A DNA stretch of 55,275 nucleotides from Syntrophobacterales bacterium (GCA_021163105.1 JAGGXJ010000086.1:1-55275); one strand, 5' to 3'; counted from the stretch's first letter, positions 6,515 through 21,322 are shown. A program made the numbers and translations. The notes: generated by a model not told the origin, from the sequence alone.

Positions 6515-6548
6515 GGATAGAGAAGTCTCGCGGTATCTTTTAAAAGTG

Positions 6549-6592
6549 AAAGGGGGGTTAAAGATGATAATCCATCTTTAATCCCCCTTTTT
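6549..6592. terminator. Bidirectional intrinsic terminator between convergent transcription units
   Basis: AAAGGGGGGTTAAAGATG / CATCTTTAATCCCCCTTT inverted repeat with T-runs on both strands. Confidence 0.8.
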
Positions 6593-6614
6593 AATCGTGC
6601 AGAAATGTTTTCTC

Positions 6615-6758
6615 TCAGGCAAATGCCGATGAGGTCGCAATCAGTATTCCCGCTGCAAATACGACCATTCCCAACCCCGCCCCTCCAGCTGTGGCCAGGA
6701 GGGGTGCCATTCCTAACAAAAGAAACCCAAATGCAAATCTTCCTTCTCTTGAATCCAT
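6615..6758 (-). CDS. Small hydrophobic membrane protein, 47 aa (absent from the ORF track)
   Basis: AAGGAG RBS 6 nt before ATG; MDSREGRFAFGFLLLGMAPLLATAGGAGLGMVVFAAGILIATSSAFA*; ends just before the terminator. Confidence 0.65.
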   Translation of the reverse strand: MDSREGRFAFGFLLLGMAPLLATAGGAGLGMVVFAAGILIATSSAFA

Positions 6759-6774
6759 AATGTTCTCCTTAATC

Positions 6775-7011
6775 TTGATGGCTTTGTAAATTCCGATTCA
6801 TCGGGACTGCGTTCCACTGCATTCTTCCCCGGCTTTTGCTGGGGCAGGCTTACTGCGGCGTACCGTATGTACGCCTCATTCCTCATGATTTGCGCGCCTT
6901 GCCCGGGGGTGTCCCGAAGGGATGCAATATAATAGAACTATTCCTTACCGGGAAGTGCTCCACCAAGCGGGCGGCGCGCTTCCATTTGAAGCTTCTTGCT
7001 TTGCCATCTAA
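6775..7011. mobile_element. Composite MITE-like repeat with nested palindromes
   Basis: Ends TTGATGGCTTTGTAAA / TTGCTTTGCCATCTAA; internal hairpins TTCCGATTCATCGGGA, CCCCGGCTTTTGCTGGGG, GGCGTACCGTATGTACGCC, GTCCCGAAGGGAT. Confidence 0.6.
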
Positions 7012-7032
7012 TATTTACTTTCTACAAGTGCA

Positions 7033-7503
7033 TCAGTCTTCAATCCCTTTAACGCTTATAGCTGATATAATGAGTCTGTTTCTTGTCAGCAGATGTTTCA
7101 TTACAATTCCAACTGCCTCAACTCTGTCTCCCACAAATATTTTATTTGAGGGCGCAGTGAACATAATTACGCGTATACCTGCTGTTTCGTCCTTAATATG
7201 AAAGTGAGGTCGGTTCAACCATTTGAAGCTTATCTTCTGAACCTCACCCGATATCCTGACAACATCTCCAATCATCTTCTGATCTATCTTTCCAATCTCG
7301 CAGGCGCGCGCCTTTGAAGCAAACTGTTCATTCGCCTGCAGAAAGCTCCTGCGGCTCATCCACGCAAGAGTCATTGGAATGATAATAAGCATAATCAGGC
7401 CGGGAACAGCATACAACAGAAATCGCGAATCTCCCGTTGAGGTATAGTGCAAGGTTACGGCCACCGCACATATAGCGAATGCTACCCAGGCTAATGCTGA
7501 CAT
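7033..7503 (-). CDS. Membrane-anchored OB-fold protein, function unknown
   Basis: Two N-terminal hydrophobic segments, then VRISGEVQKI...IKDETAGIRV...VGDRVEAVGIV OB-fold pattern. Confidence 0.7.
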   Translation of the reverse strand: MSALAWVAFAICAVAVTLHYTSTGDSRFLLYAVPGLIMLIIIPMTLAWMSRRSFLQANEQFASKARACEIGKIDQKMIGDVVRISGEVQKISFKWLNRPHFHIKDETAGIRVIMFTAPSNKIFVGDRVEAVGIVMKHLLTRNRLIISAISVKGIED

Positions 7504-7518
7504 CTTATCGTATTTCCT

Positions 7519-8400
7519 TTAATCTGCCGGCAGGTCTTTTCTGAACATCAGGAAGTATGCAACCCCGATGAAGAGAAAACCGCCGAATATATTCCCTATC
7601 GTAACAGGAATAAGATTCCAGAGCCATATATCGGACCAGCTAAGGCCTCCGTTGGCAAGCAGGAGCCCGCCCTTCTTTGCTATTACGGCCGGATACCAGT
7701 CACTGAGAAACTTTCCTGCAGGCAGGAAGTACATATTGGCCACGCAATGCTCAAAGCCGGACGCCACGAATGCCATAATCGGGAACCAGATTCCGAAAAA
7801 TTTACCGACCACGTCGTCTGCCGTAATGGCGAGAAGGAGGGCAATATTGACCAGAAAGTTACAACCAATAGCCTTCATGAAACAGGACCACAGGCCCGCG
7901 ATCCCAACGGCCTTGTACCCCAGGATCTTTCCGGCCGCGATGCCGACCGCCGTCATACCAAAGGCATTAACTGCCATGGTGCCATCGGCCTGGCCGCTTA
8001 CAAACGGGCCGACCGCCATAAGATACGCATAAGCAAGTGAACCTACAAGGTTTCCTATGTAGACCCAGACCCAGTTTCTCATGACCGCGCTCCATGTGAT
8101 CTTTTTCATCATCGCGGCCATGGGAACGATCATGCAATCACCGGTAAAGAGTTCCATCCCGGTCAGGACAATAGCGATCAAGCCTACCGGGAATACGGCA
8201 CCGCCGATAAGCTTAGCGATTCCCGGACCAAGATGTGCCGCTACGCCCGTTACGCATACCGTGCAGAGCGCTCCTCCAATGGCGATATAGGCGCCTGCCA
8301 TAAAGCCTCTGAGAAGCAAGTTAAAAACCGAAAGTTTTGCTTTGCCGACTCCCGCATTGCCAACAAGAGCAACCATTTTTGCAGGGGGGTTAAAAGCCAT
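7519..8400 (-). CDS. fdhC: Formate/nitrite transporter (FNT) family formate channel
   Basis: GFMAGAYIAIG, FPVGLI, GMELFTGD, WVYIGNLVGS, AIGCNFLV, GFEHCVANMY, VTIGNIFGG. Confidence 0.92.
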   Translation of the reverse strand: MAFNPPAKMVALVGNAGVGKAKLSVFNLLLRGFMAGAYIAIGGALCTVCVTGVAAHLGPGIAKLIGGAVFPVGLIAIVLTGMELFTGDCMIVPMAAMMKKITWSAVMRNWVWVYIGNLVGSLAYAYLMAVGPFVSGQADGTMAVNAFGMTAVGIAAGKILGYKAVGIAGLWSCFMKAIGCNFLVNIALLLAITADDVVGKFFGIWFPIMAFVASGFEHCVANMYFLPAGKFLSDWYPAVIAKKGGLLLANGGLSWSDIWLWNLIPVTIGNIFGGFLFIGVAYFLMFRKDLPAD

Positions 8401-8468
8401 AAATTAGTACCTCCTTCATTTAAATAATTTTTTTAATGTGGTCCCCTGTGGACCATTTATATTTTCAA

Positions 8469-11162
8469 TCAGGCTGCTTCTATCTTTACCGCGCAGACCT
8501 TGTATTCGGGAATTTTCCCGATGGGGTCGAGCGCCGGATTGGTAAGAAGATTTACGGCTGCTTCACTGAAATGGAAATTCATAAATATGGTGCCCTCAGG
8601 TGGGGTATCAACCACACTGGCTTTTACCTTAAGGCTGCCACGCCGCGATGTAACCGTTATAAAATCGCCTTCTTTAATTTTCAGTTTTTCCGCATCCCTT
8701 GAATTTATCTCTGCCAGGCTCTCAGGATATCGTTCGTTGAGTCCCTCGCTTCTTCTTGTCATAGTTGCCGTATGAAAGTGATAGAGAACACGCCCGGTTG
8801 TAAGAATGAAAGGATATTCATTATCGGGCAGCTCATCCGAAGGTCTATAATCTATTGCGGAAAAGAGTCCCAATCCTCTGGAGAACTTACCCTTATGCAG
8901 ATATCTGGTACCGGGATGGTCCGTGCTGGGGCAAGGCCACTGAATCCCTTCCTCCTCTATGCGTTCGTAGGTAATGCCCGCGTAGCTGGGAGCCAAGCCG
9001 TTTATCTCGTCCATAATCTCTTTAGCGGAAGAGTAGCTCATAGCGTAGTTCATCTTTGTCGCCAGTTCGGAGATTATCTGCCAGTCAGCTTTTGCCTCAC
9101 CAGGTGCATCAACGGCCTTTCTTATACGTTGAACTCTCCTCTCCGTATTGCTGAATGTGCCATTCTTTTCGGCAAAACATGCTGATGGCAGCACCACGTC
9201 GGCAAGTTGTCCCGTTTCGTTCAGAAAGATGTCCTGTACAACAAGGATGTCAAGATTTTTAAGGGATGCCTCAACGTGGGTGAGGTCAGGATCGCTGACC
9301 ATCGGGTTTTCTCCCATGATGTAGAGGCCTTTAAGGTCTCCATCATGTGCCGCGTTCATAATTTCCATGATGGTGAGGCCGGGTTTTGCCGGCAGTGAAA
9401 CGCCCCATGACTTTTCAAATTTGGTCCTGGCATCATCATTTGCTATAGGCTGATATGCCGGGAGAACATTTGGAAGCGCACCCATATCGCAGGCGCCCTG
9501 GACGTTGTTCTGGCCTCTGAGAGGATTGACCCCGCCACCTTCCACTCCGACATTACCGCACAGCATTGACAGATTTGCGCAGGATTTAACGGCGTCCGTT
9601 CCGTGCGAATGCTGTGTAATGCCCATAGCATACAGGATGGACGCACTGTTTGCCTCCGCGTATATGCGAGCGGCAATTCTGAGATCATCGGCTGGTACCC
9701 CTGTAATGTCTTCGACATGGTCGGGGGTATATTTTGCGACGGTCTCTTTCATGGTCTCAAAACCCTCTGTACGATTCGCCACGTATTCCTTCGCGTAAAG
9801 TCTCTCATCAATGATTGAGTTCATCAGACCATTAAGAACGGCCACATTTGTGCCGGGTTTGGGACGCAGCCATATATCGGCATAGTCCACAAGGCCGATC
9901 TTTCTGGGATCGATCACGATCAGTTTGGCACCATGCTGGCGGACAGCCCTCTTTACGCCCGAGCCTATCACCGGGTGATTCTCTGTTGTGTTAGTTCCTA
10001 TCGCGAGAATTGCATCCGTAAATTCTATCTCTTCTATGGAATTGGTCATTGCGCCTGATCCGAATGTGGCAGCCAGACCGGCTACCGTAACGGAGTGTCA
10101 GAGACGGGCGCAGTGATCGATGTTATTTGTACCGATCACCGCTCTCATGAATTTCTGGAAGAGATAGTTTTCCTCGTTGGTACAGCGTGCCGAGGAGAGC
10201 CCCGCAATACTGTCAGGCCCGTCTTTCTCTTTTATAGAGGCAAATTTTTCTGCGATATAGCCGTAGGCCTCTTCCCAGCTTGCCGCTTTCAACTCTCCAT
10301 CCATGCGAATAAGAGGCGTTTTTAGGCGATCGGAATTGTCTATGAAGTTCATTCCAAATCTGCCCTTGGAACAGAGCATTCCATGATTGGGCTTGCCATA
10401 ATCCATATTTGTTGTGACCTTGACAACTTTTCCATCACTGACATTGAGGTCCATCTGGCATCCTACTCCGCAATAGGGGCATGTTGTGCGCACCTTTTTC
10501 ATTTCCCACGGACGCCCTTTAAACCTTGCCTGTTTGAATGTCAGGGCCCCGACGGGGCACGCGTCGACACATGCGCCACAGAACACACATTCGGAATCTA
10601 TGTAATCTGCGTCGAAGGCAGGGCTGACCTTTGTGTGTGATCCGCGCATTGAGAAGTCGAGAACTTCGTGAACCTGTATCTCATTACAGACTCGGATGCA
10701 TCTTCCGCAGAGGATACACTTGTTGAGATCTCTCTGTATCATGGAATTGGTGTCTTCTATCTCATATCCCGGGAGATCGATCTCAAAGCGGGGTTTTTCA
10801 ATGCCCAGTTCGTATATGAGATCCTGAAGTTCACAGTCTCCGTTCTTTTCACATTGAAGGCAGTTGTGATTTCCTGATGACCACAGAAGTTCCGCCACCA
10901 TCCTGCGGGCATTCATAACCTTTTCGGTATTGGTCTGCACAACCATGCCCGGACTTACAGGTGTGCAGCACGAAGCTTCAAGTTTTCCAGCAGTTCCAAT
11001 CTCGACAACACATACGCGGCAGGCACCTGCTGGTTTGGTGTTGGGATAATAGCAAAGGGTTGGAATATGTATCCCATTTTCTTTAGCAATTTCCAGAATG
11101 GTTTGTCCTGAAGATGCCTCTATCTTTTTCCCGTCAATTGTTAATGAAATTTTGTTGCCCAT
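8469..11162 (-). CDS. fdhA: Selenocysteine-containing cytoplasmic formate dehydrogenase alpha subunit (about 897 aa; the two track ORFs joined through UGA=Sec)
   Basis: ORFs 10098-11168 and 8469-10049 are in the same frame and read [27 protein letters not shown]; N-terminal 2Fe-2S and 4Fe-4S motifs, [26 protein letters not shown]; AGGAGG 7 nt before ATG 11162; no Tat signal. Confidence 0.95.
10062..10100 (-). other. Sec UGA codon and bacterial SECIS stem-loop
   Basis: UGA CAC UCC GUU AC-GGUAGCC-GGUCU-GGCUGCC; hairpin about 11 nt after UGA with a GGUCU loop, like the E. coli fdhF SECIS. Confidence 0.85.
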
Positions 11163-11173
11163 CTTCACTCCTC

Positions 11174-12895
11174 CTAACCCCTTTTTACGAGATCTTCAAA
11201 TTCACCCCTAAACTTTGCAACCATTGCTTCTATGGGCATTGCAAATGCATCGCCTGTAGGACACAATGTCAACCCTTTGATCGTGTCGCATGTATCAAGA
11301 ATAGTGTCAATATTTTCGATAGTTCCTTCACCGCTTGTCAGTTTCCCGAGCAAAACTTTGATGGTTTTTGAACCTTCTCTGCCAGGAACGCACTGCCCGC
11401 AGCATTCATGGGCATAAAAATTTATTGTCCGCAGGGCCAGCTCGGGAATAGACATGGTATCATTGATGACCATGATTCCACCGGAGCCAAGCATGGTGCC
11501 TGCTTTAGCACATGAATCGTAGTCCATCTTAAGGTCGCCTATTTCGTCAGCTTTTAAAATCGGCACAGACAGACCTCCGACAATAACAGCTTTCAAGTTT
11601 CCTTTTACCCCACCGGCTGTTTCGAGAATAACCTTAAGGGATGTTCCTAAAGGATACTCGTAAACCCCAGGTTTGTTGACATGACCGCTTACCCCATAGA
11701 GTTTAGGGCCAAAGTTTCCCTCAGTACCGATCTTTTTAAATTCCTGTACCCCTTTCTCCACGATAAAAGGAACACAGGAGAGTGTTTCTACATTGTTAAC
11801 AATGGTAGGAGAGCCATAAAGACCAACATTGGCAGGAAATGGAGGTTTGACTCTCGGGTTCCCTCTTTTGCCCTCTATAGACTCGATTAACGCTGTTTCT
11901 TCCCCGCAAACATATGAGCCGGCGCCCCGGTGAACTACAATATCAACATGATTGAGCTGGCCATCTTTTTTTGCCTGTCTTATGGCATTCTCAAGGATAT
12001 CCGCAATCCATCTAAATTCTCCCCGAATATAAATGAAGGCCTTTTCGGCTCCTATTGCATAAGCTGAAATGGCTATTCCCTCAATCATAAGATGCGGATC
12101 ATACTGCATGATTTGCCTGTCTTTAAAAGTTCCTGGCTCACCCTCATCCGCATTGCATATTAAATAGACAGGTCGAGAATTATCTTTAGGGAGAAACCCC
12201 CACTTCACTCCTGCGGGAAAACCGGCGCCACCACGTCCTCTAATCATCGATCCCTTAACCATGTCAACAATTTCAGATGGTTGCATCTTGAAGGTTTTTT
12301 TAAGTGCTTCATAACCACCACCCTTCTTATAAACGGTGATATCTGTAGCATCTGAAATGCCCCGATTTTTCAAAAGGATATTACACTCTGTCCCGAAGTT
12401 TGAAAACGTGTCAGGTTCAGGCATTTTACCGGACTTCAGCGATTCAACCAGTTCATCCACTTTCTCGATTGTTAAGTTTTCATAATACGTATCATTAACC
12501 TGAACCACAGGACAGGTGCCACAGGAACCAAGGTCTTCAACAGAGGAAAGGGTGAAGAGGCCATCGCCGGTTGTCCCCCCAACCTCGATTCCTAATTTTT
12601 TCTTGAGATGTTCAACAATTTCATATGCACCGGATAGGAAACCCGGTATATTTGTATCGACCTGCAGGTGATATTTACCTACCGGTTTAGTATTATACAT
12701 TGTATAATACGTCGTTACACCAAAAGCTCTGCTGTTAGGTACACCTACAATTTTAGCTACCTCTTTAATGTCTTCATTAGACAAAAAATTGTTGTTTTTA
12801 CGCTGGGCTATTTCTAAAGCAGGCATAAGGGCCGATTTTCTGGAAGGATAGAGATTAGCCAGCTCAGATACTCTTTCTTCTGTTTCTTCGTTCAT
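11174..12895 (-). CDS. Fused NuoE-NuoF-like NADH/FMN-binding subunit of formate dehydrogenase
   Basis: NuoE-like N-terminus (SALMPALEIAQ, TYYTMYN, GKYHLQV), then GRGGAGFPAG, CNADEGEPGTFKDR, GAGSYVCGEETAL, NNVETL, HECCGQC; no C-terminal ferredoxin domain. Confidence 0.88.
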   Translation of the reverse strand: MNEETEERVSELANLYPSRKSALMPALEIAQRKNNNFLSNEDIKEVAKIVGVPNSRAFGVTTYYTMYNTKPVGKYHLQVDTNIPGFLSGAYEIVEHLKKKLGIEVGGTTGDGLFTLSSVEDLGSCGTCPVVQVNDTYYENLTIEKVDELVESLKSGKMPEPDTFSNFGTECNILLKNRGISDATDITVYKKGGGYEALKKTFKMQPSEIVDMVKGSMIRGRGGAGFPAGVKWGFLPKDNSRPVYLICNADEGEPGTFKDRQIMQYDPHLMIEGIAISAYAIGAEKAFIYIRGEFRWIADILENAIRQAKKDGQLNHVDIVVHRGAGSYVCGEETALIESIEGKRGNPRVKPPFPANVGLYGSPTIVNNVETLSCVPFIVEKGVQEFKKIGTEGNFGPKLYGVSGHVNKPGVYEYPLGTSLKVILETAGGVKGNLKAVIVGGLSVPILKADEIGDLKMDYDSCAKAGTMLGSGGIMVINDTMSIPELALRTINFYAHECCGQCVPGREGSKTIKVLLGKLTSGEGTIENIDTILDTCDTIKGLTLCPTGDAFAMPIEAMVAKFRGEFEDLVKRG

Positions 12896-13010
12896 TTTGA
12901 CGCCCCCCCCAATTTTTATATTTTTATTCGTTTACTTGTTTATATAATCGCGCTTCTGCTGAATATGGTATAGAGCATAGTGCTTACCCCCATACCTTTT
13001 AATTGTCTCT

Positions 13011-13715
13011 CTATCCTTCAAAACTCAGATTTCTTTCCTTCTCTTCTTCTTTGTCTGTCTTTCGCTGGTCAACAAAAAATATTAAGCTCTCTAATTCACA
13101 GGCCATATCAACATCGGAGATAAAAACATCATCGTTTGTTCTTAAAGCGACCGGTGCAAAATTCAAAATCCCTTTTATGCCTGCACCCATAAGTTTGTCT
13201 GCTACATCTTGGGCCACATCAGGAAGCGTCGCAATTATTGCGATTTCCATATTGTCTGTTTTAATAACCTCAGCCAGATTTTCCACGCTGTGAATTTTGA
13301 CACCGGAAAAATTTTTACCTATCTTATTGTTGTCAATATCAAAGGCACAGATAATCTTAAGATGAAACTTGGAAAAACCTTCAAATCTTAAAAGAGCGCT
13401 CCCCAAACTTCCCACGCCGACTAAAGCTACTCTCCACTCCTTATCTATACCCAAAATAGATTCTAACTCACTTATTAACCTCTCAATTTCATACCCTACT
13501 CCTCGTTTACCAAATTCTCCAAAATAGGAGAGGTCTCTTCTGAATTGTTCGGGAGAAACATTTGAGCACTTTGATATCTCACCTGATGAGATAATCTTTA
13601 CATTATTTTCCTTGAATCTTCTCAAGTTCCTGAGATAGAGACTCAGCCTTCTGATTGTTTCTGCAGAAAAGCATTTTTTCTTAGTGCAGATTGTATGCTG
13701 TGATAATTTTCTCAC
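13011..13715 (-). CDS. rex: Redox-sensing transcriptional repressor Rex
   Basis: TIRRLSLYLR, QFRRDLSYFGEFGKRGVGY, LVGVGSLGSAL, GILNFAP. Confidence 0.93.
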   Translation of the reverse strand: MRKLSQHTICTKKKCFSAETIRRLSLYLRNLRRFKENNVKIISSGEISKCSNVSPEQFRRDLSYFGEFGKRGVGYEIERLISELESILGIDKEWRVALVGVGSLGSALLRFEGFSKFHLKIICAFDIDNNKIGKNFSGVKIHSVENLAEVIKTDNMEIAIIATLPDVAQDVADKLMGAGIKGILNFAPVALRTNDDVFISDVDMACELESLIFFVDQRKTDKEEEKERNLSFEG

Positions 13716-13734
13716 TTTGTTTATCCTTTCACAA
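13698..13734. promoter_or_regulatory. Candidate tandem Rex operators overlapping the rex RBS and start codon
   Basis: 13717-13734 reads TTGTGAA-AGGA-TAAACAA on the minus strand (consensus TTGTGAA-N4-TTCACAA); weaker CTGTGAT-AATT-TTCTCAC at 13698-13715. Confidence 0.6.
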
Positions 13735-13826
13735 GCTCATAACAAACGAATAAATCCATGTCAAGTAAAAACATTGCATTTCACATTTTTTTCTTGACAA
13801 TTCAAATTATAAGGTTTATTCGGAAG

Positions 13827-13841
13827 ATGACTCATGGTCAT
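13827..13841. promoter_or_regulatory. Candidate TetR operator palindrome
   Basis: ATGAC-TCATG-GTCAT just downstream of a TTGACA (13794-13799) promoter-like element, upstream of the TetR gene. Confidence 0.55.
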
Positions 13842-13922
13842 ACTTTGACCTTTGTTTAGTTATTGGCAACTGGCGGTAAATACAAAATCAGTTAAAACAA
13901 AATTGGAAACGGGAGTATAAAA

Positions 13923-14561
13923 ATGGCGCCTGGGGAACGTAGAAAGAGAGAAAAGGAGCAGAGAAGAAAGACGATTCTCAAGGCTGCCAGGAAACTGTTC
14001 TTTAAGCGAGGGTACAATCCAGTCACTGTTTCAGATATCGCGAAAAAGGTTGAATTGAGCAAAGGGGCGATTTATCTCTATTTCAGCAGTAAAGAGGAGA
14101 TATGTGCCCAAGTGCTGCTGGATGATATTGAAAAATTCCACGGTGAGGTGCTCCCGATATTCGAGGGAGGGGCCGGCGCGTCAGAAATATTTGCTGAGTT
14201 TGCCCATATGTATGTGGATTTTTTCCTGAAGGACAGGGAGCTGTTCAGGATGTTTATGAATTTCATGTTGCATGCCAATAATCTGAATCTGCCGGATGAT
14301 ACAAACAAGAGGATTATCCGGGAAACAAACAAGGCAGTCTCCGTTACTGAGAATATATTTCAATACGGAATTGACAAAGGTGAATTTACTCTCAGAAAAG
14401 AAGATATAAGAACCATGAGGAATACATTCTGGGGGATGCTTAACGGGATAATTTCACTTCACCTTTTCATAGGCAGAGAATCAACCAGAGAAGAGAGGAT
14501 ACGCTCCAATGTTAATAAATGTTTGGGCATTTTTATAGAGGGTCTAAAAAAAACTGAATGA
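13923..14561 (+). CDS. TetR/AcrR family transcriptional regulator
   Basis: ILKAARKLFFKRGY...VSDIAKKVELSKGAIYLYFSSKEEI helix-turn-helix. Confidence 0.92.
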   Translation: MAPGERRKREKEQRRKTILKAARKLFFKRGYNPVTVSDIAKKVELSKGAIYLYFSSKEEICAQVLLDDIEKFHGEVLPIFEGGAGASEIFAEFAHMYVDFFLKDRELFRMFMNFMLHANNLNLPDDTNKRIIRETNKAVSVTENIFQYGIDKGEFTLRKEDIRTMRNTFWGMLNGIISLHLFIGRESTREERIRSNVNKCLGIFIEGLKKTE

Positions 14562-14576
14562 GGAGGGTGCAGGATT

Positions 14577-16442
14577 ATGGGAAATACATTGGTTAACACG
14601 AGGGACCAGAGGTTCATTTTGTTTGAGCAGCTGGGTATCGAGGATCTTTTTACCGCCGGGAAGTATGAGGATTACTCGCAGGAAGTGGTTGACATGATGT
14701 TGACCGAGGCGGAGAAGATGGCTGTGGACGTCATTCTTCCCACCTACGATGTCGGTGACAGGGAAGGTGCTGTTTTCGCGGACGGAAAAGTTACCGTTCC
14801 GGCTTGTATTCATGATGCCCTTAAGAAGTTTAATGAGGGAGGGTGGGGCTGCGCCCCTGCGGATCCGGAAGTTGGAGGACAGAACGTGCCGCTCTGTGTG
14901 TGGAGCGCCTGTACGGAACTGCTTGACTCGGCAAATTTTGCGTTTATGATGTATCCTGGATTGACAATGGGAGCGGCTCATCTGATCTGGCTATACGGCA
15001 CGGAAGAACAAAAAAATACCTACATGTACAAGATGTTTGCCGGTGAATGGGGCGGCACCATGTGCCTGACAGAGCCGGGCGCGGGCAGTGATGTGGGGGC
15101 CACGAGGGCGATCGCAAAGAGACTGCCTGATGGTACCTTCAGTATCGAGGGTACGAAATCCTTTATCTCCTCCGGTGACAATGATCTTTATTCCAATATC
15201 ATCCATCCCGTTCTTGCCAGGATCGAAGGAGATCCTCCGGGGACAGGCGGGATTTCCATCTTTATCGTTCCCAAGTTCAAGGTGAATGAGGACGGGAGCG
15301 TGGGTGAATCCAATGATGTTATCACGGGCGGTATCGAGCACAAGATGGGTATAAAGGCATCAGCCACCGCTACGCTGAACTTCGGTGAAAACGGGAAATG
15401 TGTCGGTTACCTTCTGGGCAAGGAACGTGCCGGCATGAAGATAATGTTCGACATGATGAATAATGCCAGGTTGGAAGTAGGAATGCAGGGTCTCGGACAC
15501 GCGTCCGCATCTATGGAACATGCCGTTCAGTATGCTAAAGAGAGGATTCAGAGCAGGCACATTATGGAGATGACGCTTCCCGATGCGAAGGCAGTACCTA
15601 TTATCCAGCATCCCGATATCAGACGATCTCTCCTCTGGATGAAATCTCATGTCGAGGGCATGAGGGCGATGAACTATTTTGTTGGTTACTGCATCGATAA
15701 GGCAGAGACCACAACTGACGAAGCTGAAAAGAAAAAATGTAAAGGTTTCGTTGAAATCCTGACGCCCATCATCAAGGCCTATTGTTCTGACAAGGCCTGC
15801 GAGATCTGCTCGCTTGGCATCGATGTATATGGCGGTTACGGGTACATCCAGGAATATCCGATGGAACAGTATCTGAGAGACGCTAAAATTTCCTGTCTCT
15901 ATGAGGGGACAAACTATATCCAGGCACTTGATTTTGTTGGAAGAAAGATGGGTCAAAACAGGGGTATGAATCTTATGAACCTGTTTGGGCTGATTGATGC
16001 CGACATTAAGAAGGCCAAGGAGAACGATGAGTTAAAAGAATATGCAGAACATCTTGAGGAAGCCTACAATGCCGCTGTCGGCATTGCGATGCAGTTTGCC
16101 GAATGGGGCAAGAGCTCCAGCGTATTGCTTCCTATCATGAATGCGAGGCCGTACCTTATGGTTATGGGTGATCTTTTTGTCGGATGGCAGCTTATCCAGG
16201 CGGCGGTTATCGCTTCCGAAAAACTTGTTGCCATGTATGCCGAAGCCGGTGCGGAAGGTTCTCTGGCAAAGCAGAGGGCTCTTGCGCGGAAAAATGCGGA
16301 CGCCGCGTTCTATCAGGGAAAGATTGCATCAGCGAAATACTTTGCATGTAACGTCCTTCCGACAATTGAGGGCAGATGCAAATGTATTACACTGGCGGAT
16401 AAGACCCCCATTGAGATGCTGGAGGATTCTTTTGCGGTTTAA
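14577..16442 (+). CDS. Acyl-CoA dehydrogenase (long FadE type)
   Basis: GTMCLTEPGAGSD, GTKSFISSG, IEHKMGIKASAT, GGYGYIQEYPMEQYLRD, YEGTNYIQALD. Confidence 0.93.
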   Translation: MGNTLVNTRDQRFILFEQLGIEDLFTAGKYEDYSQEVVDMMLTEAEKMAVDVILPTYDVGDREGAVFADGKVTVPACIHDALKKFNEGGWGCAPADPEVGGQNVPLCVWSACTELLDSANFAFMMYPGLTMGAAHLIWLYGTEEQKNTYMYKMFAGEWGGTMCLTEPGAGSDVGATRAIAKRLPDGTFSIEGTKSFISSGDNDLYSNIIHPVLARIEGDPPGTGGISIFIVPKFKVNEDGSVGESNDVITGGIEHKMGIKASATATLNFGENGKCVGYLLGKERAGMKIMFDMMNNARLEVGMQGLGHASASMEHAVQYAKERIQSRHIMEMTLPDAKAVPIIQHPDIRRSLLWMKSHVEGMRAMNYFVGYCIDKAETTTDEAEKKKCKGFVEILTPIIKAYCSDKACEICSLGIDVYGGYGYIQEYPMEQYLRDAKISCLYEGTNYIQALDFVGRKMGQNRGMNLMNLFGLIDADIKKAKENDELKEYAEHLEEAYNAAVGIAMQFAEWGKSSSVLLPIMNARPYLMVMGDLFVGWQLIQAAVIASEKLVAMYAEAGAEGSLAKQRALARKNADAAFYQGKIASAKYFACNVLPTIEGRCKCITLADKTPIEMLEDSFAV

Positions 16443-16498
16443 GACATAATGAACGTGAATCAAGGCGCTTGTTTTATGCCTAATAAAGGAGGAATAAC

Positions 16499-18919
16499 AT
16501 GTCGTATAAAATCAAAAAAGCTGCCGTTATAGGGGCAGGAGTCATGGGCGCTACAATAGCGGCTCACCTTGCGAATGCGGGGATTGAGAGTGTGATGCTT
16601 GACATAGTGCCTCCCTTTGATCCGAGCGAGAAGGACTTGGAAAAAGGGCTGATAAAAGAGAGCAAAGCATGGCGGAACAGTTTCGCGGCGAATGGATTGA
16701 ACGGTGCGGTAAAATCCAGACCGGCGAGTTTCTATTCCAAAAAGTTTGCGTCGATGATCACAATCGGTAATCTTGAGGATGATCTTGATCTCTTGAAGGA
16801 TGTTGATTTTCTTCTCGAAGTAGTCGTCGAGAACCTGAAGATCAAGCAAGATCTCTTCGCGAAGGTGTTAAACATCACAAAACCGGACTGTATCATTGCC
16901 ACCAATACCTCCGGTATTCCGATTAAAGAGATCTCATCAAATATGAGTGCAAAGGACAAAGAGCGTTTTCTTGGTGTCCACTTTTTTAATCCACCCCGGT
17001 ACATGAAGCTTGTTGAGGTTATCCCCGGCGAGACAACAAAGAAGGAAATCGTTGATTACATGACGGATTTTCTCGAAAATGTCGTAGGGAAAGGTGTTGT
17101 TATCTGTAAAGACGTTCCCAATTTTATCGCAAATCGTATCGGTGTTTTTGATATATCAAACGCGGTTAAAACCATGCTTGGCAAGGGACTCACGATACCG
17201 GAACTGGATGCCATTATTGCCAAGGTTCTTGGCAGACCCGGTTCAGCGATCTGCGGAACGATCGATCTTGTCGGTATAGATACGGGTTATCATGTCATGA
17301 AGAATCTTGTCGAGGCCGTGCCGGACGATGAGATGATAGACACCTTTAAGCCACCTGAGTTCATGGACAAGATGGTGAAGAATAAATGGCTTGGCAACAA
17401 GACCAAGGGTGGCTTTTACAAAAAGACGAAGGATGAGAAGGGCAAAAGAGTCAAACTGGCGCTCGACTATAATACCATGGAGTATGTTCCATTCAAAAAA
17501 GCCAAATACGAATCAGTCAAGGAAGCGGGCAAGACTGAGGGCGGCTTTGATGACAAACTGAAAGCGCTCTTTTATTCCGAAAAGGATATTGCCGGTGAAG
17601 TCGTAAGGGAATATCTCTGCAAGAACTTCATATATTCGGCCAATCGTATCCCCGAAATATGCGACACAGTTTATCAGGTAGATAATACAATGAAGTGGGG
17701 TTACAACCACCAGAAAGGTCCCTTTGAGACATGGGATGCCGTCGGTGTGAAGGAATCGATAGAGGTGATGAAAAAGCTGAAGCTTAAGGTTCCCAAGAAG
17801 ATCACCGAGATGCTGAAGAAGGGTTGTGAGACGTTCTATGCAAAGAAGGAAGACGGTAAATATTACTACGACTTCGACAAGAAGGACTATGTGAAGATGG
17901 AGGATAATCCCAAGATTATCCTACTGCCGGATCTTAAAGCGGAGAATAAAGTAATCAAGGAAAATGCCGGAGCTTCTCTTGTGGATATAGGTGACGGTGT
18001 GGCATGCCTTGAGTTTCATACCAGAATGAACGCGATCGATGGTGACATTATAAGTATGATGTACGACAGCTGTGATATCGTGGAAAAGGATTTTGCGGGC
18101 ATGGTGGTTGCAAATCATGGCACTAACTTCTCTGTGGGCGCCAACATTTTCCAGGTGCTTATGGCGGTCCAGAATGCTGAATGGGATCTGCTTGACAACC
18201 TGATTCATGAACTTCAGTACGCCAACATGAAAATGAAATACTTGGAAAAACCGGTCGTAACCGCTCCGGCAGGCATGGCTCTGGGTGGCGGCTGCGAGAT
18301 ATCCATGCATGGTCAGAGGTGCCAGCCTGCTGGCGAGACATATATGGGACTCGTTGAAGTAGGAGTTGGTGTAATCCCAGCTGGCGGCGGATGCAAGGAG
18401 CTGATGGTGCGCTGTACAGAAGGTCTCCCGGAAGGCACAGGTGAAGTCTTGAACATGCAGCCCATTTATGAAAAAGTTCTGATGAATATAGGGCAGGCCA
18501 AGGTAGCCACCAGTGCGGTGGAGGCAATGGAGTTGGGTTACATTAGAAAAACGGAAAATGTGAGTCTCAACCGCGATCACCAGATTTGGGATGCCAAGAA
18601 ACTTGTTCTGGCAATGGCAAAAACCCATAAAAAGAAAAAGCCCGACATGATCCCGGTTATGGGTGAGAGTTTGATGGGTCTCGCGCATGCCGTTCTGTAC
18701 AATATGAAACATGGGAATTTCATGTCCGATTATGACGAACATGTCACAATGAAACTCGCATGGATACTTTCCGGTGGTCAGTGTATGGAAGGTACCTTTG
18801 TTACAGAGGATGCGATACTTGATCGAGAGCGAGAAGCTTTCCTCAGCTTGGCCGGTGAGCAGAAAACGCAGGATCGTATCATGCATATGCTCTCAAAGGG
18901 CAAGCCGCTTCGTAACTAA
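16499..18919 (+). CDS. fadN: 3-hydroxyacyl-CoA dehydrogenase / enoyl-CoA hydratase (FadN type)
   Basis: AVIGAGVMG, EVVVENL, TNTSG, HFFNPPRYMKL; C-terminal crotonase ALGGGCE, GLVEVGVG; ends GKPLRN. Confidence 0.92.
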   Translation: MSYKIKKAAVIGAGVMGATIAAHLANAGIESVMLDIVPPFDPSEKDLEKGLIKESKAWRNSFAANGLNGAVKSRPASFYSKKFASMITIGNLEDDLDLLKDVDFLLEVVVENLKIKQDLFAKVLNITKPDCIIATNTSGIPIKEISSNMSAKDKERFLGVHFFNPPRYMKLVEVIPGETTKKEIVDYMTDFLENVVGKGVVICKDVPNFIANRIGVFDISNAVKTMLGKGLTIPELDAIIAKVLGRPGSAICGTIDLVGIDTGYHVMKNLVEAVPDDEMIDTFKPPEFMDKMVKNKWLGNKTKGGFYKKTKDEKGKRVKLALDYNTMEYVPFKKAKYESVKEAGKTEGGFDDKLKALFYSEKDIAGEVVREYLCKNFIYSANRIPEICDTVYQVDNTMKWGYNHQKGPFETWDAVGVKESIEVMKKLKLKVPKKITEMLKKGCETFYAKKEDGKYYYDFDKKDYVKMEDNPKIILLPDLKAENKVIKENAGASLVDIGDGVACLEFHTRMNAIDGDIISMMYDSCDIVEKDFAGMVVANHGTNFSVGANIFQVLMAVQNAEWDLLDNLIHELQYANMKMKYLEKPVVTAPAGMALGGGCEISMHGQRCQPAGETYMGLVEVGVGVIPAGGGCKELMVRCTEGLPEGTGEVLNMQPIYEKVLMNIGQAKVATSAVEAMELGYIRKTENVSLNRDHQIWDAKKLVLAMAKTHKKKKPDMIPVMGESLMGLAHAVLYNMKHGNFMSDYDEHVTMKLAWILSGGQCMEGTFVTEDAILDREREAFLSLAGEQKTQDRIMHMLSKGKPLRN

Positions 18920-18990
18920 TTAACATGTTTAGCCGCGCAGGCTCAGTAGCGGAGAGCACTGTGCGGCATCAGACAATAAGGAGGATTATC

Positions 18991-20178
18991 ATGCGTGAAG
19001 CTGTTATTGTTGAAACAGTAAGAAGCCCGGGAGGGCGTTACAAGAGGGGAGGACTTGCCCAGACCAGAGCAGATGAGATAGGGATTCAGGTTGTGAAGGG
19101 ATTGATGGAGAAGGTTCCGCAGGTCAAACATGAAGAGGTTGATGATATAATCTGCGGTTGCTCGTTTCCCGAAGCCGAACAGGGTATGAATCTCGGCAGG
19201 GTTATAGCGCTGGGCGCCGGATTTCCCGTAACCACCTCGGGGATGACTGTCAATCGCTTTTGTTCTTCCGGTTTGCAGTCGATTGCTGATGCAACGGCTA
19301 AAATCAGAGCAGGATGGTCTGATATAATCATAGCCGGTGGTTGCGAAAGCATGTCCCATATACCGATGGGCGGTTGGATATTCCGTCCTCATCCTGACTG
19401 GGGTGACCTTCCGATGACCTATGTATCGATGGGAGTTACCGCGGAAAACGTGGCTGCTGATTATGGAATTACACGTGAAGATCAGGACAAAATGGGTCTT
19501 GAAAGTAACCGAAGGGCGCATGAAGCAATCCAGAAGGGATTGTGGAAGGAGCAGATAATACCAATTGATGCCTGGAAATACCAGAAAGACAGGGATGGCC
19601 AGTGGGTCCGGACAACGAAGACATTTGATATGGATGATGGTGTAAGATGGCCCTCAACAATGGAGAATATGGCAAAACTGAAACCGCCCTTCAAACAGGG
19701 TGGTTCCGTGACGGCGGCAAATTCGTCGCAAATGACCGATGGTGCCGCGTTCTCGATGATAATGTCGGCGGAGAAGGCGGATGAACTCGGACTGAAACCG
19801 ATTGCGAAACTGACCCACTATGCCGTAGAGGGCAACAAACCGGAAGAAATGGGTGTAGGTCCACGTTACGCTATCCCGAAGGTCCTCAAACTTGCAGGAC
19901 TCAAGATGAAAGATATAGACCTCTTTGAGATCAATGAGGCCTTTGCGTCACAGGCCATCTACTGCTGCAGGGAGCTTGGCATAGAGAAACGTTATTGGAA
20001 GGGTGAGGTCAACCCAAACGGAGGTGCCATTGCCATAGGTCATCCTCTGGGGTGTACTGGAGCGAAGCTGTCATGCCAGTTGATGCACGAGATGAAGAGA
20101 CGTAAAGTCAAGAGGGGAATTGTCTCCATGTGTATCGGTGGCGGTATGGGGGCTGCCGGCATATATGAGATGCTGTAA
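18991..20178 (+). CDS. fadA: Acetyl-CoA C-acyltransferase (thiolase)
   Basis: AGGAGG RBS before ATG 18991; NRFCSSGLQ, EINEAFA, GHPLG, MCIGGGMG. Confidence 0.93.
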   Translation: MREAVIVETVRSPGGRYKRGGLAQTRADEIGIQVVKGLMEKVPQVKHEEVDDIICGCSFPEAEQGMNLGRVIALGAGFPVTTSGMTVNRFCSSGLQSIADATAKIRAGWSDIIIAGGCESMSHIPMGGWIFRPHPDWGDLPMTYVSMGVTAENVAADYGITREDQDKMGLESNRRAHEAIQKGLWKEQIIPIDAWKYQKDRDGQWVRTTKTFDMDDGVRWPSTMENMAKLKPPFKQGGSVTAANSSQMTDGAAFSMIMSAEKADELGLKPIAKLTHYAVEGNKPEEMGVGPRYAIPKVLKLAGLKMKDIDLFEINEAFASQAIYCCRELGIEKRYWKGEVNPNGGAIAIGHPLGCTGAKLSCQLMHEMKRRKVKRGIVSMCIGGGMGAAGIYEML

Positions 20179-20203
20179 ACACAAAGATTATATTTAATCT
20201 GGG

Positions 20204-20235
20204 AAAGCCATGGTCCTTGTGACCATGGCTTTTTT
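20204..20235 (+). terminator. Intrinsic terminator of the beta-oxidation operon
   Basis: AAAGCCATGGTC-CTTGT-GACCATGGCTTT plus T-run. Confidence 0.85.
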
Positions 20236-20241
20236 GCTTTA

Positions 20242-20380
20242 GGTTCTTCTCCAATCTAGTTGGAGAAGAGGGTTCAAAGATTCCAGGGGTCCAGGGTTGT
20301 CTTTCTTCCTTCCACTCGACCCCGTGGACCCTTGATTCCTTGAACCCTTCTGGTAATTGCAACTAATCGGGAGATGAGCC
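20242..20380. mobile_element. MITE-like element with terminal inverted repeats and TTA target duplication
   Basis: Ends GGTTCTTCTCC / GGAGATGAGCC with TTA on both flanks; internal 8-bp periodic GGTTCAAG/CTTGAACC arms; related to 25694-25836 and 36904-37004. Confidence 0.7.
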
Positions 20381-20512
20381 TTATTTTATAATAGTCACCG
20401 CCCAGGTTATTAGTCTGAAGGTTGAAGATTGGGGGAGGGTGTTAGTGTTTGAGCTCGGCAGCACAAATGTGATACGAGAGAAAATGAAAAATATTAGAAC
20501 GGAGTAATAACT

Positions 20513-21322
20513 ATGAAGACTGGTGCGATTCAGTTTGAACCGCTGTTTGGCGAGGTAGACAGAAATCTGGAACTGGCTGGAAATCTGATCATGAAATCTG
20601 ATGCAAACCTCCTGGTCCTTCCGGAACTGTTCAATACCGGATATCTGTTTACATCAAAGGAGGAGGTGGCCTCTCTTTCCGAGGAGATACCTCATGGCAA
20701 GACAACGCGGATGTTGTGCGATGTGGCGAAGGATAAGGGCATTTTTATTGTGGGTGGTATCGCCGAGAAAAGTGGAAACAGGATATTCAACTCGGCTGTG
20801 CTTGTTTCTCCTGAAGGTTATATCGGAAGATACAGAAAGGTACACCTCTTCTTTGAGGAAAAGCTCTGGTTTGACCCCGGGGATGAAGGTTTCATAGTTT
20901 ATGACGCAGGCACGTGCAAATTGGGAATGATGATATGCTTCGACTGGTTTTTCCCGGAATCGATGCGAGCGCTGTCACTTATGGGTGCTGATATAATCTG
21001 TCATCCGGCGAATTTGGTGATGCCCTTCTGTCAGTATGCAATGAAGACGAGATGTCTTGAGAACCATGTTTTTGCAATAACAGCGAATAGAACCGGAACT
21101 GAAAGCAGGGGGAAAAAATCACTCCATTTTACCGGTGGAAGTCAGGTGACCGGACCGGATGGTAGGATTCTCTGCCGTGCCGGTGAAGATTCGGAAGAGA
21201 CAGTAATAGCTCAAATCGATGTGAAGGCGGCTCGTGATAAGAAAATCAACTTCTACAATAATCTCTTTGACGACAGGAAACCTGAATTCTACAGGAGCCT
21301 TGCTGTTGAGAGAAACAAATAA
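20513..21322 (+). CDS. Carbon-nitrogen hydrolase (nitrilase superfamily)
   Basis: Glu-Lys-Cys triad: LPELFNTGY, YRKVHLF, ICFDWFFPE. Confidence 0.9.
   Translation: MKTGAIQFEPLFGEVDRNLELAGNLIMKSDANLLVLPELFNTGYLFTSKEEVASLSEEIPHGKTTRMLCDVAKDKGIFIVGGIAEKSGNRIFNSAVLVSPEGYIGRYRKVHLFFEEKLWFDPGDEGFIVYDAGTCKLGMMICFDWFFPESMRALSLMGADIICHPANLVMPFCQYAMKTRCLENHVFAITANRTGTESRGKKSLHFTGGSQVTGPDGRILCRAGEDSEETVIAQIDVKAARDKKINFYNNLFDDRKPEFYRSLAVERNK

Follow-up and report, generated by a model that had tools for sequence, protein, structure and literature searches.

Two divergent operons on one contig

The stretch of DNA analysed here (the window, 55,275 nt) is contig C107 of a metagenome assembly of a Syntrophobacterales bacterium (GCA_021163105.1, JAGGXJ010000086.1:1-55275; 2.01 Mb in 154 contigs, 97.5% complete; genome G000). 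It carries two operons back to back. The leftward arm, rex-nuoEF-fdhA-fdhC-OB156-sORF47, encodes a redox-sensing repressor, a putative NADH-linked CO2 reductase with a selenocysteine (Sec)-type formate dehydrogenase (FDH) subunit, a formate channel and two small proteins; the rightward arm, tetR-ACAD-fadN-thiolase, encodes beta-oxidation functions, including a long acyl-CoA dehydrogenase (ACAD). The initial annotation had described this gene order around a spacer of about 200 bp, with a strong terminator closing each arm and two proteins of unknown function in the left one. All the genes were recovered at or near the positions given there, the spacer measures 207 bp (13716-13922), a hairpin closes each arm, and the two proteins, OB156 and sORF47, are present, conserved and uncharacterised. 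The features of the locus are as follows.

6549..6590, minus strand: intrinsic-terminator-like hairpin at the end of the left arm, followed by UUUCACUUUU (-27 kcal/mol, z -5.08, equalled by 0 of 200 shuffles; U-rich tail)
6615..6758, minus strand: sORF47, 47-aa peptide from a short open reading frame (tblastn)
6777..7034, no strand assigned: inserted short repeat element between OB156 and sORF47
7033..7503, minus strand: OB156, whose sole Pfam match is a weak oligonucleotide/oligosaccharide-binding (OB) fold (E 8.8e-4)
7519..8400, minus strand: fdhC (Pfam PF01226 Form_Nir_trans, 253 bits versus a cut-off of 34.6)
8469..11162, minus strand: fdhA (open reading frame to 11168; Pfam, TIGR01591)
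10054..10102, minus strand: hairpin resembling a selenocysteine insertion sequence (SECIS), starting at the UGA (folding)
11174..12895, minus strand: nuoEF, a single 573-aa gene (Pfam)
12896..13010, minus strand: rex-nuoEF spacer (sequence reading and alignment A5)
13011..13715, minus strand: rex (NCBIfam Rex, 254 bits versus a cut-off of 126)
13717..13734, no strand assigned: candidate Rex operator, TTGTTTATCCTTTCACAA, the best match in the window (2 mismatches)
13828..13850, no strand assigned: candidate TetR/FadR-like operator, TGACTCATGGTCATACTTTGACC (half-sites TGAC / GGTCA / TGACC)
13923..14561, plus strand: tetR (Pfam TetR_N)
14577..16442, plus strand: ACAD, 621 aa (Pfam, NCBIfam)
16499..18919, plus strand: fadN, 806 aa (Pfam 3HCDH_N, 3HCDH, ECH_1, ECH_2)
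18925..20178, plus strand: thiolase, an acetyl-CoA C-acyltransferase (Pfam Thiolase_N, Thiolase_C; TIGR01930, 433 bits versus 240.55)
20200..20236, plus strand: intrinsic terminator at the end of the right arm (16-pair stem with 6 G-C pairs, then a T run)

The left-arm hairpin, which is convergent with an ABC permease gene (4709-6514), sits just outside position 6615, where the initial annotation had begun the locus, and is absent from the list returned by a consensus terminator scan. Over 6000-21000, that promoter and terminator scan showed no enrichment (23 promoter-like sites versus 22.0 expected, and 18 terminator-like sites versus 15.4).

A putative NADH-linked CO2 reductase

FdhA joins a NuoG-like N-terminal Fe-S domain to a formate dehydrogenase domain of the Mo/W-bis-pyranopterin guanine dinucleotide type (Pfam Fer2_4, NADH-G_4Fe-4S_3, Fer4_Nqo3, Molybdop_Fe4S4, Molybdopterin and Molydop_binding). 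It scores 907 bits against TIGR01591 (cut-off 666) and aligns end to end with R. capsulatus FdsA (6tg9_A, residues 4-898, E 2e-227). An in-frame TGA at 10098-10100 lies in the context CARL-U-HS, which we take to be the formate dehydrogenase active-site motif. The SECIS-like hairpin at this UGA (-21.2 kcal/mol, z -2.1, equalled by 4 of 200 shuffles) has the apical stem GGUAGCC/GGCUGCC and the loop GGUCU, and the decoding genes are found elsewhere in the genome, with tRNA-Sec on C61 and SelB on C75 (350 bits versus a cut-off of 242). Judging by the codon context, the hairpin, tRNA-Sec and SelB, the TGA is predicted to be read as selenocysteine. The fdhA start is most likely the ATG at 11162, the GGAGGAG ribosome-binding site of which overlaps the nuoEF stop codon.

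The diaphorase, NuoEF, is one polypeptide comprising a NuoE domain (2Fe-2S, residues 11-154) and a NuoF domain (FMN, NADH and 4Fe-4S sites, residues 213-568); it is closest to Nqo1/NuoF (2fug_1, E 2e-112) and also matches 6tg9_B (E 5.8e-75). The section of Losey et al. that deals with the distinction (PMC7311640, section 17), from which we took our criteria, assigns Thr/Ser and Lys/Ser/Ala at HydB positions 232/234 to non-bifurcating beta subunits and Ala/Glu and Met to bifurcating ones; the former also have Tyr rather than Phe at position 367 and lack both GGPSG and extra C-terminal [4Fe-4S] domains. These positions were placed by alignment with solved chains rather than by the T. maritima numbering itself. 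NuoEF carries EGEPGTFKDR (Thr and Lys) and GAGSYVCGEE (Tyr near the FMN site, HydB 367), compared with EGDPGAFMDR (Ala, Met) in solved bifurcating HydB proteins and in the NuoF::GltD proteins of relatives described below, and with GAGAFVCGEE in the bifurcating type. It lacks GGPSG in the SLBB region, which reads VGGLSVP, and ends five residues past the NADH_4Fe-4S domain (568 of 573), without an extra C-terminal [4Fe-4S] domain. Agreeing in all of these features with the published type, NuoEF is predicted to be non-bifurcating and specific for NADH. The gene content of the left arm supports a complete cytoplasmic NADH-type CO2 reductase, presumably working with the adjoining formate channel.

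The ribosome-binding region of nuoEF contains an 8-G run (12903-12910, minus strand) 8 nt ahead of the start codon; a contig from a sequencing run (X2, below) has 9. The extra base may be sequencing noise; otherwise, the tract varies in length and could adjust the translation of nuoEF.

The beta-oxidation arm

ACAD is FadE-like with an Acyl-CoA_dh_C domain and is 99% identical to the protein of G010, a close relative. FadN fuses an N-terminal, NAD-binding 3-hydroxyacyl-CoA dehydrogenase to an enoyl-CoA hydratase, and we propose it as the probable source of NADH. ACAD needs electron-transferring flavoprotein (ETF), which is encoded elsewhere. The matches to Bacillus-type Fad families fall under the respective equivalog cut-offs: the best NCBIfam match of TetR is the Bacillus-type FadR at 66 bits (cut-off 200), and the other matches are FadE (147 versus 600) and staphylococcal FadB (595 versus 999). 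Only the domain architectures match, and by architecture the arm probably works like a Bacillus-type Fad system, with TetR a candidate FadR-like acyl-CoA sensor.

The control region

Two outward-facing TTGACA boxes, read by eye as were the other promoter hexamers, lie 29 bp apart in the spacer (13764-13759, minus strand; 13794-13799, plus strand). Leftward, the box is followed by a -10-like TATGAG (13741-13736) and then by the Rex-like box, which overlaps the rex ribosome-binding site; rightward, it is followed by a weak -10 and then by the candidate operator TGACTCATGGTCATACTTTGACC. The consensus used for Rex operators was TTGTGAA-N4-TTCACAA. The Rex box is conserved in G010 and G007, and the candidate TetR operator is invariant in these two genomes and the present one. 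More broadly, GGTCA-N5-TGACC occurs upstream of tetR in 14 of 18 loci (at most 3 mismatches), mostly in the spacer, with rex opposite or not.

Rex, encoded once in the genome, belongs to the family of NADH/NAD+ redox-sensing repressors and has the winged-helix DNA-binding (Put_DNA-bind_N) and Rossmann NAD(H)-binding (CoA_binding) domains. Rex derepresses NADH-consuming enzymes when NADH is high, and because of this its presence fits operation of the left arm in the CO2-reducing direction. The initial annotation had the two regulators sharing one control region. They do have the spacer in common, but the candidate operators are approximately 95 bp apart, each behind its own -35 box, which suggests, as far as the sequence goes, that the arms are controlled separately rather than jointly.

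Pairing of beta-oxidation with a redox module among relatives

We compared 40 relatives, 24 from the same family and 16 from other families. By coordinates over all 40, which is the less selected count, the ACAD orthologue shares a contig with NuoE/NuoF, a few kb off, in 19 genomes; with G007, added from its locus, the number is 20 (18 of the 24 family relatives and 2 of the 16 others). The loci of 19 relatives were fetched, mostly chosen because the ACAD and NuoE/NuoF matches shared one contig, with G011, G026, G009 and G007 in addition. At 16 of the 19, tblastn showed tetR-ACAD-fadN-thiolase divergent from DRTGG-HATPase-DRTGG-PHP-HATPase-nuoE-(2Fe-2S ferredoxin)-nuoF::gltD. The exceptions are G011, which has fdhC-OB156-sORF47 in this place, G026, which has neither, and G009, the first contig of which is too short; a second G009 contig shows the same pairing, with rex. 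The adjacency pointed out in the initial annotation is thus not unique to this genome at the level of the module type, but the exact combination of rex, fused nuoEF and fdhA next to tetR was found only here.

The NuoF::GltD protein (1018 aa) has EGDPGAFMDR, GAGAFVCGEE and GGPSG; its best solved matches are the bifurcating HydB chains 7t2r_B, 7q4v_B and 8a6t_B, and its GltD half matches 9bov_A, 8oh5_C and NfnA 9n5u_A. In three other families (G025, G071 and G169), the NuoF::GltD module is contiguous with fdhA, which makes it the diaphorase that normally accompanies this FdhA in the order. The fdhC-OB156-sORF47 triad follows fdhA on the same strand in G071 (L126 and L233) and G169 (L127 and L234) and is convergent just downstream in G025 (L119); in G010 (L088), the module is followed by a Sec-type fdhA, and the contig does not reach the triad. 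From its sequence, the DRTGG-to-fdhA cluster resembles a flavoprotein module of the transhydrogenase type joined to an active FDH and may represent a separate type of NAD(P)/ferredoxin-linked formate dehydrogenase.

Within the genus, the slot opposite tetR is variously filled. It holds only the sensor genes with NuoE-Fdx-NuoF::GltD in G006, G012, G013 and G008, and also rex in G007, G009 and G010, of which G010 has fdhA downstream and the other two have contigs ending before nuoE. In G004, the sensor genes beside tetR are interrupted by genes for an [FeFe]-hydrogenase large subunit (C14:15798-18375, in L092). In the closed genome G011, tetR faces the triad directly, with about 1 kb between them (L090, 9283-11811), and rex, diaphorase and fdhA are absent there. 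An fdhA-like remnant lies just 3' of nuoF::gltD in G002 (L096, approximately 2547-2700; 76% identity over residues 86-135) and suggests that fdhA once followed the module in this genome and has since been lost; intact fdhA-fdhC-OB156-sORF47 is on another G002 contig (L109). Most genus members carry these four genes on another contig, beside housekeeping genes such as rpsF and dnaB.

Such variability could mean that the adjacency has no functional significance: the stretch between the ABC permease gene and tetR would be a slot prone to recombination in which redox modules accumulate, each arm would be regulated and used on its own, and the FDH would serve, for example, general NADH balance or one-carbon metabolism. 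The contents vary within a single genus (sensors with NuoF::GltD, rex, the triad only, hydrogenase, nuoEF), the four-gene fdhA set mostly resides elsewhere, and the candidate Rex and TetR operators are separate, as this explanation would have it. Nevertheless, we regard it as unlikely, given that whatever fills the slot always handles NADH, formate or H2 and always faces the same beta-oxidation operon, in at least three families (f1, f4 and f6), and that persistence across 50-99% protein identity is not expected of a neutral neighbour. A functional link, in which the right arm produces NADH and the left arm disposes of it, is the reading that we prefer. A limited literature search, which is no proof of absence, found no description of the pairing of beta-oxidation with a diaphorase, of the replacement considered below or of Rex control of such an FDH.

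Replacement of the diaphorase and arrival of rex

Comparison with G010 by blastn delimits a recent replacement. Homology covers 13008-20241 (94.5% identity) and 10065-11172 (85%), and the intervening segment of approximately 1.8 kb, nuoEF with its leader, is unique to this genome, standing in place of 6.8 kb in G010 (L088, 9669-16452), namely, the sensor genes and nuoE-fdx-nuoF::gltD between rex and fdhA. The left junction coincides with the fdhA ribosome-binding site. The right junction, at about 12940, lies approximately 70 nt behind rex, these rex-proximal 70 nt being common to G010 (alignment A5). G007 and G009 are arranged as G010 over the part covered by their contigs, rex through HATPase-2.

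Gene distributions, for which the wider sample comprised about 200 genomes of the order, 19 of them from the same family, set the components of the arm apart. Fused nuoEF orthologues occur in 1 of the 40 relatives and in 5 of 200 genomes of the order but in 0 of 19 from the family, and the best, 81% identical, belongs to another family. Relatives of the fused gene were retrieved at 80 loci in many phyla, mostly paired with fdhA; none of the 80 has beta-oxidation genes alongside, with the partial exception of L079 (weak thiolase, 36%, and fadN, 31%). Three metagenome-assembled genome records, L031, L036 and L051, contain OB156 as well as a fused nuoEF. The initial annotation had called the diaphorase unusual, which holds only for the family, in view of these 80 loci and of the same fusion described for S. 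aciditrophicus HydB in the relevant part of PMC7311640. FdhA, by contrast, is 85-88% identical to its counterparts in the genus, compared with 47-56% to the FdhA proteins that accompany the foreign nuoEF, and appears native to the genus. Close copies of rex (86-88%) are found only in G007, G009 and G010 among the 40 relatives, so that rex appears to be a recent arrival in this sub-clade. GC content at third codon positions is 0.39 in nuoEF and 0.36 in rex, compared with 0.51-0.59 in fdhA, fdhC and the beta-oxidation genes.

The history would then be as follows. The ancestral partner of the beta-oxidation operon in the family would have been of the bifurcating type, consisting of five sensor genes, NuoE, a 2Fe-2S ferredoxin and NuoF::GltD. 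Next, rex would have entered one sub-clade of the genus, and the present genome would subsequently have swapped the bifurcating module for the 1.8-kb foreign nuoEF cassette.

A separate arrangement is seen in G095, a closed genome of the same order: fused nuoEF (66% identity) is followed by a Sec-type fdhA (50%) at L238, 7858-18061, directly beside a membrane FDH cluster of the FdnG/FdnH/cytochrome b kind and an FdhE-like gene, so that soluble and membrane FDHs are neighbours.

The mosaic could, in principle, have been created by assembly or binning that joined two strains or species, as may happen with a 154-contig metagenome assembly, and both the deviating composition of nuoEF and rex and the presence of NuoE/NuoF genes on a separate 3-kb contig would be in keeping with that. 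We consider this highly improbable. The junctions fall at functional boundaries, i.e., the fdhA ribosome-binding site and the spacer behind rex, and the genes on the small contig (C132), being 45-51% identical to the ancestral module, are a paralogue; their status as the displaced allele of that module is ruled out. Furthermore, Logan contigs, assembled separately for each of two sequencing runs labelled 'hydrothermal vent metagenome', X1 and X2, span both junctions without difference (X1 records 3 and 4; X2 record 11) and bridge the junctions and the spacer with 0 differences (records 3, 4, 5 and 11). As the source sample may be among these runs, the bridging is consistent with the assembly rather than independent support for it. 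A genuine replacement in the genome thus remains our preferred explanation.

The formate channel and its two small neighbours

FdhC aligns with V. cholerae FocA (3kly) over residues 6-289 and retains the ELFTG and GFEHC motifs. T86 and H218, which we take to be the conserved pore Thr and His of the formate-nitrite transporter (FNT) family, are invariant in alignment A4. Because both FocA equivalog cut-offs are missed (TIGR04060, 164 bits versus 290; TIGR00790, 212 versus 232), we file the protein as an FNT member of the FdhC kind rather than as FocA.

OB156 has an AlphaFold2 model (mean predicted confidence, pLDDT, 88.9) with two N-terminal transmembrane helices and a C-terminal OB-fold barrel, which the positive-inside rule would place in the cytoplasm. 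Foldseek against the PDB returned generic OB folds only (aminoacyl-tRNA synthetase anticodon domains, RPA and MCM), and 37 columns are invariant in alignment A1. Of 201 genomes sampled from the order, 42 encode the protein, as do 17 of 19 in the family; outside the order, in the phylum sample, there were just 2 weak partial OB matches. An NfeD-like identity was considered and rejected: no NfeD match appeared in Pfam or NCBIfam, and the neighbours at every locus examined are fdhC and sORF47, not SPFH/stomatin genes. In the ESM Atlas, look-alike clusters of 152-157 aa score 0.96-0.98, and their known taxa are largely Methanobacteriota and Bacillota, which we note as a lead only.

The sORF47 product is a hydrophobic, glycine-rich membrane peptide, with copies 45-89% identical to that of the window in alignment A2. 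It has no Pfam family, and its sole NCBIfam match, NapE, is insignificant (E 0.0099). Nevertheless, sORF47 is a genuine, conserved gene that completes a triad: fdhC-OB156-sORF47 is present at all 22 genome loci of the order (22/22, tblastn). At metagenome loci retrieved with OB156 that leave room for the respective gene, fdhC immediately precedes OB156 at 60 of 60 and sORF47 comes after it at 69 of 76. The 7 loci lacking an sORF47 match may have copies too divergent for a 47-aa query. The triad also stands without adjoining fdhA, as in G011. On this basis, we propose that OB156 is an accessory of the formate channel, although prediction of the FdhC-OB156 complex (alignments A4 and A1) scored 0.00 and gave no verdict, neither for nor against binding. 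Among the literature matches listed, the sole FdhC-associated OB-fold protein is one mentioned in a passage of PMC11201294.

The gap between OB156 and sORF47 measures 275 nt in the window compared with approximately 14-45 nt in relatives. It was considered as a known riboswitch or small RNA, matched no Rfam family, and proved to hold an inserted repeat of about 258 bp, with the similarity to relatives breaking off at 6776 and picking up again at 7035. Partial copies (78-92% identity) lie on C136, C52, C58, C78 and C56. At 6852-6901, within the element, per-run contigs show word depths of more than 100 along with numerous loose ends. The insert may be a miniature mobile element.

Electron sinks elsewhere in the genome

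In the 97.5%-complete assembly, there is no large subunit of an [FeFe] or [NiFe] hydrogenase, one FNT gene (fdhC) and one Fdh-alpha above the family cut-off (fdhA). Of 13 genus members, G004 alone yielded an [FeFe] large subunit; none was found in the closed G011. From these gene counts, the organism looks like a formate-only electron exporter, with the left arm as its only visible cytoplasmic NADH sink. The assembly also lacks DRTGG, PHP and NuoF::GltD orthologues. C132 (L107, 3048 bp) carries the NuoE/NuoF paralogue mentioned above, cut at both contig ends.

The initial annotation had presented the locus as a self-contained module lacking ETF genes in the window. The latter is borne out: the six ETF-domain matches, in three ETF pairs, are all on C118, C148, C131 and C30, and none is on C107. 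The same finding removes the self-containment, given that not only ETF but also the ETF-oxidising Fe-S proteins (C148 and C30), the membrane FDH (C93) and the Sec machinery are encoded on other contigs. At C148:13247-17293 and C30:630-1989, ETF genes, both subunits on C148 and one ETF-domain match on C30, adjoin genes for 640-660-aa proteins with two CCG domains, which are likely to be ETF-oxidising membrane Fe-S oxidoreductases taking the electrons of ACAD. One FdnG-type membrane/periplasmic FDH lies at the end of C93.

The rest of the window consists of housekeeping genes (glyQS, recO, mgtE, pyrBC, secDF, tgt, queA and others), and an Rfam scan of the whole window detected no family at gathering score. 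One of the remaining genes (42548-44725) encodes a 725-aa ATP-grasp/succinyl-CoA-ligase-like/CoA-binding protein with the architecture of an ADP-forming acetyl-CoA synthetase; it is a candidate for ATP formation from the acetyl-CoA of the right arm.

The FDH might instead work mainly in the oxidative direction, with formate entering through FdhC and being oxidised to NADH, as electron donor or in a cycle, and with no export to a partner. We find this distinctly improbable. Rex-type control is typical of NADH-consuming enzymes; no other NADH sink was found, the hydrogenase large subunit being absent, and the neighbouring operon makes NADH; and replacement of a bifurcating diaphorase by an NADH-only one would best suit direct NADH disposal at low formate. 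Conversely, NAD-type FDHs and FNT channels are bidirectional, and the genome has the periplasmic FdnG-type enzyme. Furthermore, the parts of PMC8805022 dealing with formate describe both a formate cycle that leads to a periplasmic FDH and uptake by way of the channel. The flow that we favour, from NADH to formate to export, had been proposed in the initial annotation; the sequence supports the CO2 reductase and the channel, and the same flow is already published for S. aciditrophicus, in the passages concerned of PMC8805022.

A proposed NADH branch of syntrophic fatty-acid oxidation

We propose, with a probability of roughly 0.6, that the two divergent operons, each with its own sensor, act together as the NADH branch of a formate-only anaerobe that oxidises fatty acids in syntrophy. 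Beyond the observed gene content, domain signatures, synteny, junctions and distributions, this reading takes in a catalytic direction, regulator-operator pairs, inducers and roles for OB156 and sORF47 that we infer. Under this proposal, the FadR-like TetR would sit on GGTCA-N5-TGACC, would be released by acyl-CoA and would control ACAD, FadN and the thiolase, such that each turn of beta-oxidation would yield acetyl-CoA, one NADH (from FadN) and one reduced ETF. Rex would sit on 13717-13734, would be released as NADH/NAD+ rises and would control rex-nuoEF-fdhA-fdhC-OB156-sORF47. The fused NuoEF and the Sec-type FdhA would constitute a two-polypeptide, non-bifurcating NADH:CO2 reductase, and formate would exit through the FdhC pentamer, with OB156 and sORF47 as accessory membrane partners. 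The reaction would be feasible only at micromolar formate, i.e., with a formate-consuming partner.

Several observations weigh against this proposal. Rex-like sites are not enriched in the window (4 at up to 3 mismatches versus 3.08 expected, the best having 2 mismatches), and 17 sites in the genome match the Rex box at up to 2 mismatches and were not used as regulon support. No Rex box was found in the rex-nuoEF spacer, so that Rex control of nuoEF-fdhA presupposes transcription together with rex. Neither of the proposed promoters was called by the promoter scan, and the -10 on the plus strand is weak. The foreign NuoEF would have to dock on the native FdhA, and, because NAD-type FDHs are reversible, the sequence does not fix the catalytic direction. 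The paralogue on C132, the catalytic partner of which is unseen, is the main gap in the argument that there is no other NADH sink, and the absence of hydrogenase and NuoF::GltD rests on a 154-contig assembly. Finally, OB156 resembles no protein of known membrane function in Pfam, NCBIfam or Foldseek comparisons, and the repeat element that parts it from sORF47 may interfere with the distal end of the operon.

A more far-reaching proposal, which we advance tentatively and think unlikely to hold in full, is that the slot is a site of 'redox head' exchange that retunes NADH disposal and that FdhC, OB156 and sORF47 form a three-part formate export gate. The interchangeable heads would be the bifurcating NuoE-Fdx-NuoF::GltD, the non-bifurcating NuoEF and hydrogenase, and the present genome would have been caught soon after a switch from ferredoxin/NADP-coupled to NADH-only formate production. 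Within that gate, the role of the cytoplasmic OB domain would be docking or gating of the soluble CO2 reductase where it meets the channel, an arrangement that would be common to distant syntrophs (Pelotomaculaceae) and, possibly, to formate-using methanogens.

Returning to the NADH-branch proposal, the biochemistry put forward in the initial annotation is right but known in principle, and the value of the locus lies in the conserved pairing, in a datable replacement of a bifurcating by a non-bifurcating diaphorase and in the uncharacterised partners of the channel. A long-running question is the route by which syntrophs that oxidise fatty acids at the thermodynamic limit regenerate NAD+ from NADH, by ferredoxin-coupled confurcation or not and with H2 or formate as the product. 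Two very close relatives (99% identity in ACAD) that keep the same FdhA, channel, Rex and beta-oxidation enzymes and differ in having a bifurcating-type or an NADH-only flavoprotein amount to a natural experiment on this question. The triad, conserved across the order, points to unrecognised components of formate export, and the conserved pairing with the beta-oxidation operon offers a simple genomic marker of this physiology in uncultured lineages.

Comparison with known systems

In the Bacillus-type fatty-acid regulon, a TetR-family FadR accompanies fadN-fadA-fadE. The right arm comprises the same kinds of genes, i.e., a TetR-family regulator, a long FadE-type dehydrogenase, a FadN-type protein with the dehydrogenase at the N-terminus and a thiolase, but in another order and with a divergent redox partner.

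Among characterised formate dehydrogenases, FdsGBA(D) of R. capsulatus (6tg9/6tga) offers an alpha subunit that aligns end to end with FdhA, and its NuoE-like and NuoF-like modules are both present here. Unlike in that enzyme, the gamma and beta subunits are fused, the catalytic residue is Sec, no FdsC- or FdsD-like gene was seen in the operon, and a channel and two small membrane proteins are co-encoded. The NuoE-NuoF fusion recurs in the beta subunit of the non-bifurcating, NADH-dependent HydAB of S. aciditrophicus, as described in the pertinent section of Losey et al. 2020 (PMC7311640), with 585 aa compared with 573 here; the catalytic partner there is an [FeFe]-hydrogenase, whereas here it is a Sec-type FDH.

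The passages of PMC11201294 on 'Ca. Syntrophopropionicum ammoniitolerans' describe a nuoEF-fdhC-fdh operon with an unannotated gene for a two-pass OB-fold membrane protein, among the highest expressed genes of that organism. It shares with the left arm nuoEF, fdh, fdhC and a two-transmembrane OB-fold protein, the last likened by description only. That organism belongs to a different phylum (Pelotomaculaceae). Its OB domain is taken in the paper to be periplasmic, whereas that of OB156, to judge by the distribution of charges, would be cytoplasmic; neither a 47-aa partner nor a beta-oxidation neighbour is described in those passages.

The closest physiological parallel is S. aciditrophicus, in which, according to the sections concerned of Agne et al. 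2022 (PMC8805022), NADH from 3-hydroxyacyl-CoA dehydrogenase passes to a non-bifurcating soluble FDH and formate leaves through a FocA-like channel. The flow is the same as that proposed here, and the NuoF-like subunit of that FDH is without the C-terminal [4Fe-4S] domain; likewise, a separate membrane FDH and an ETF-oxidising enzyme serve the electrons from ACAD. The differences are that FDH, channel and rex here share one operon lying back to back with the beta-oxidation genes, whereas the text of that paper names the channel locus separately, and that the diaphorase of the present genome is a recent foreign replacement.

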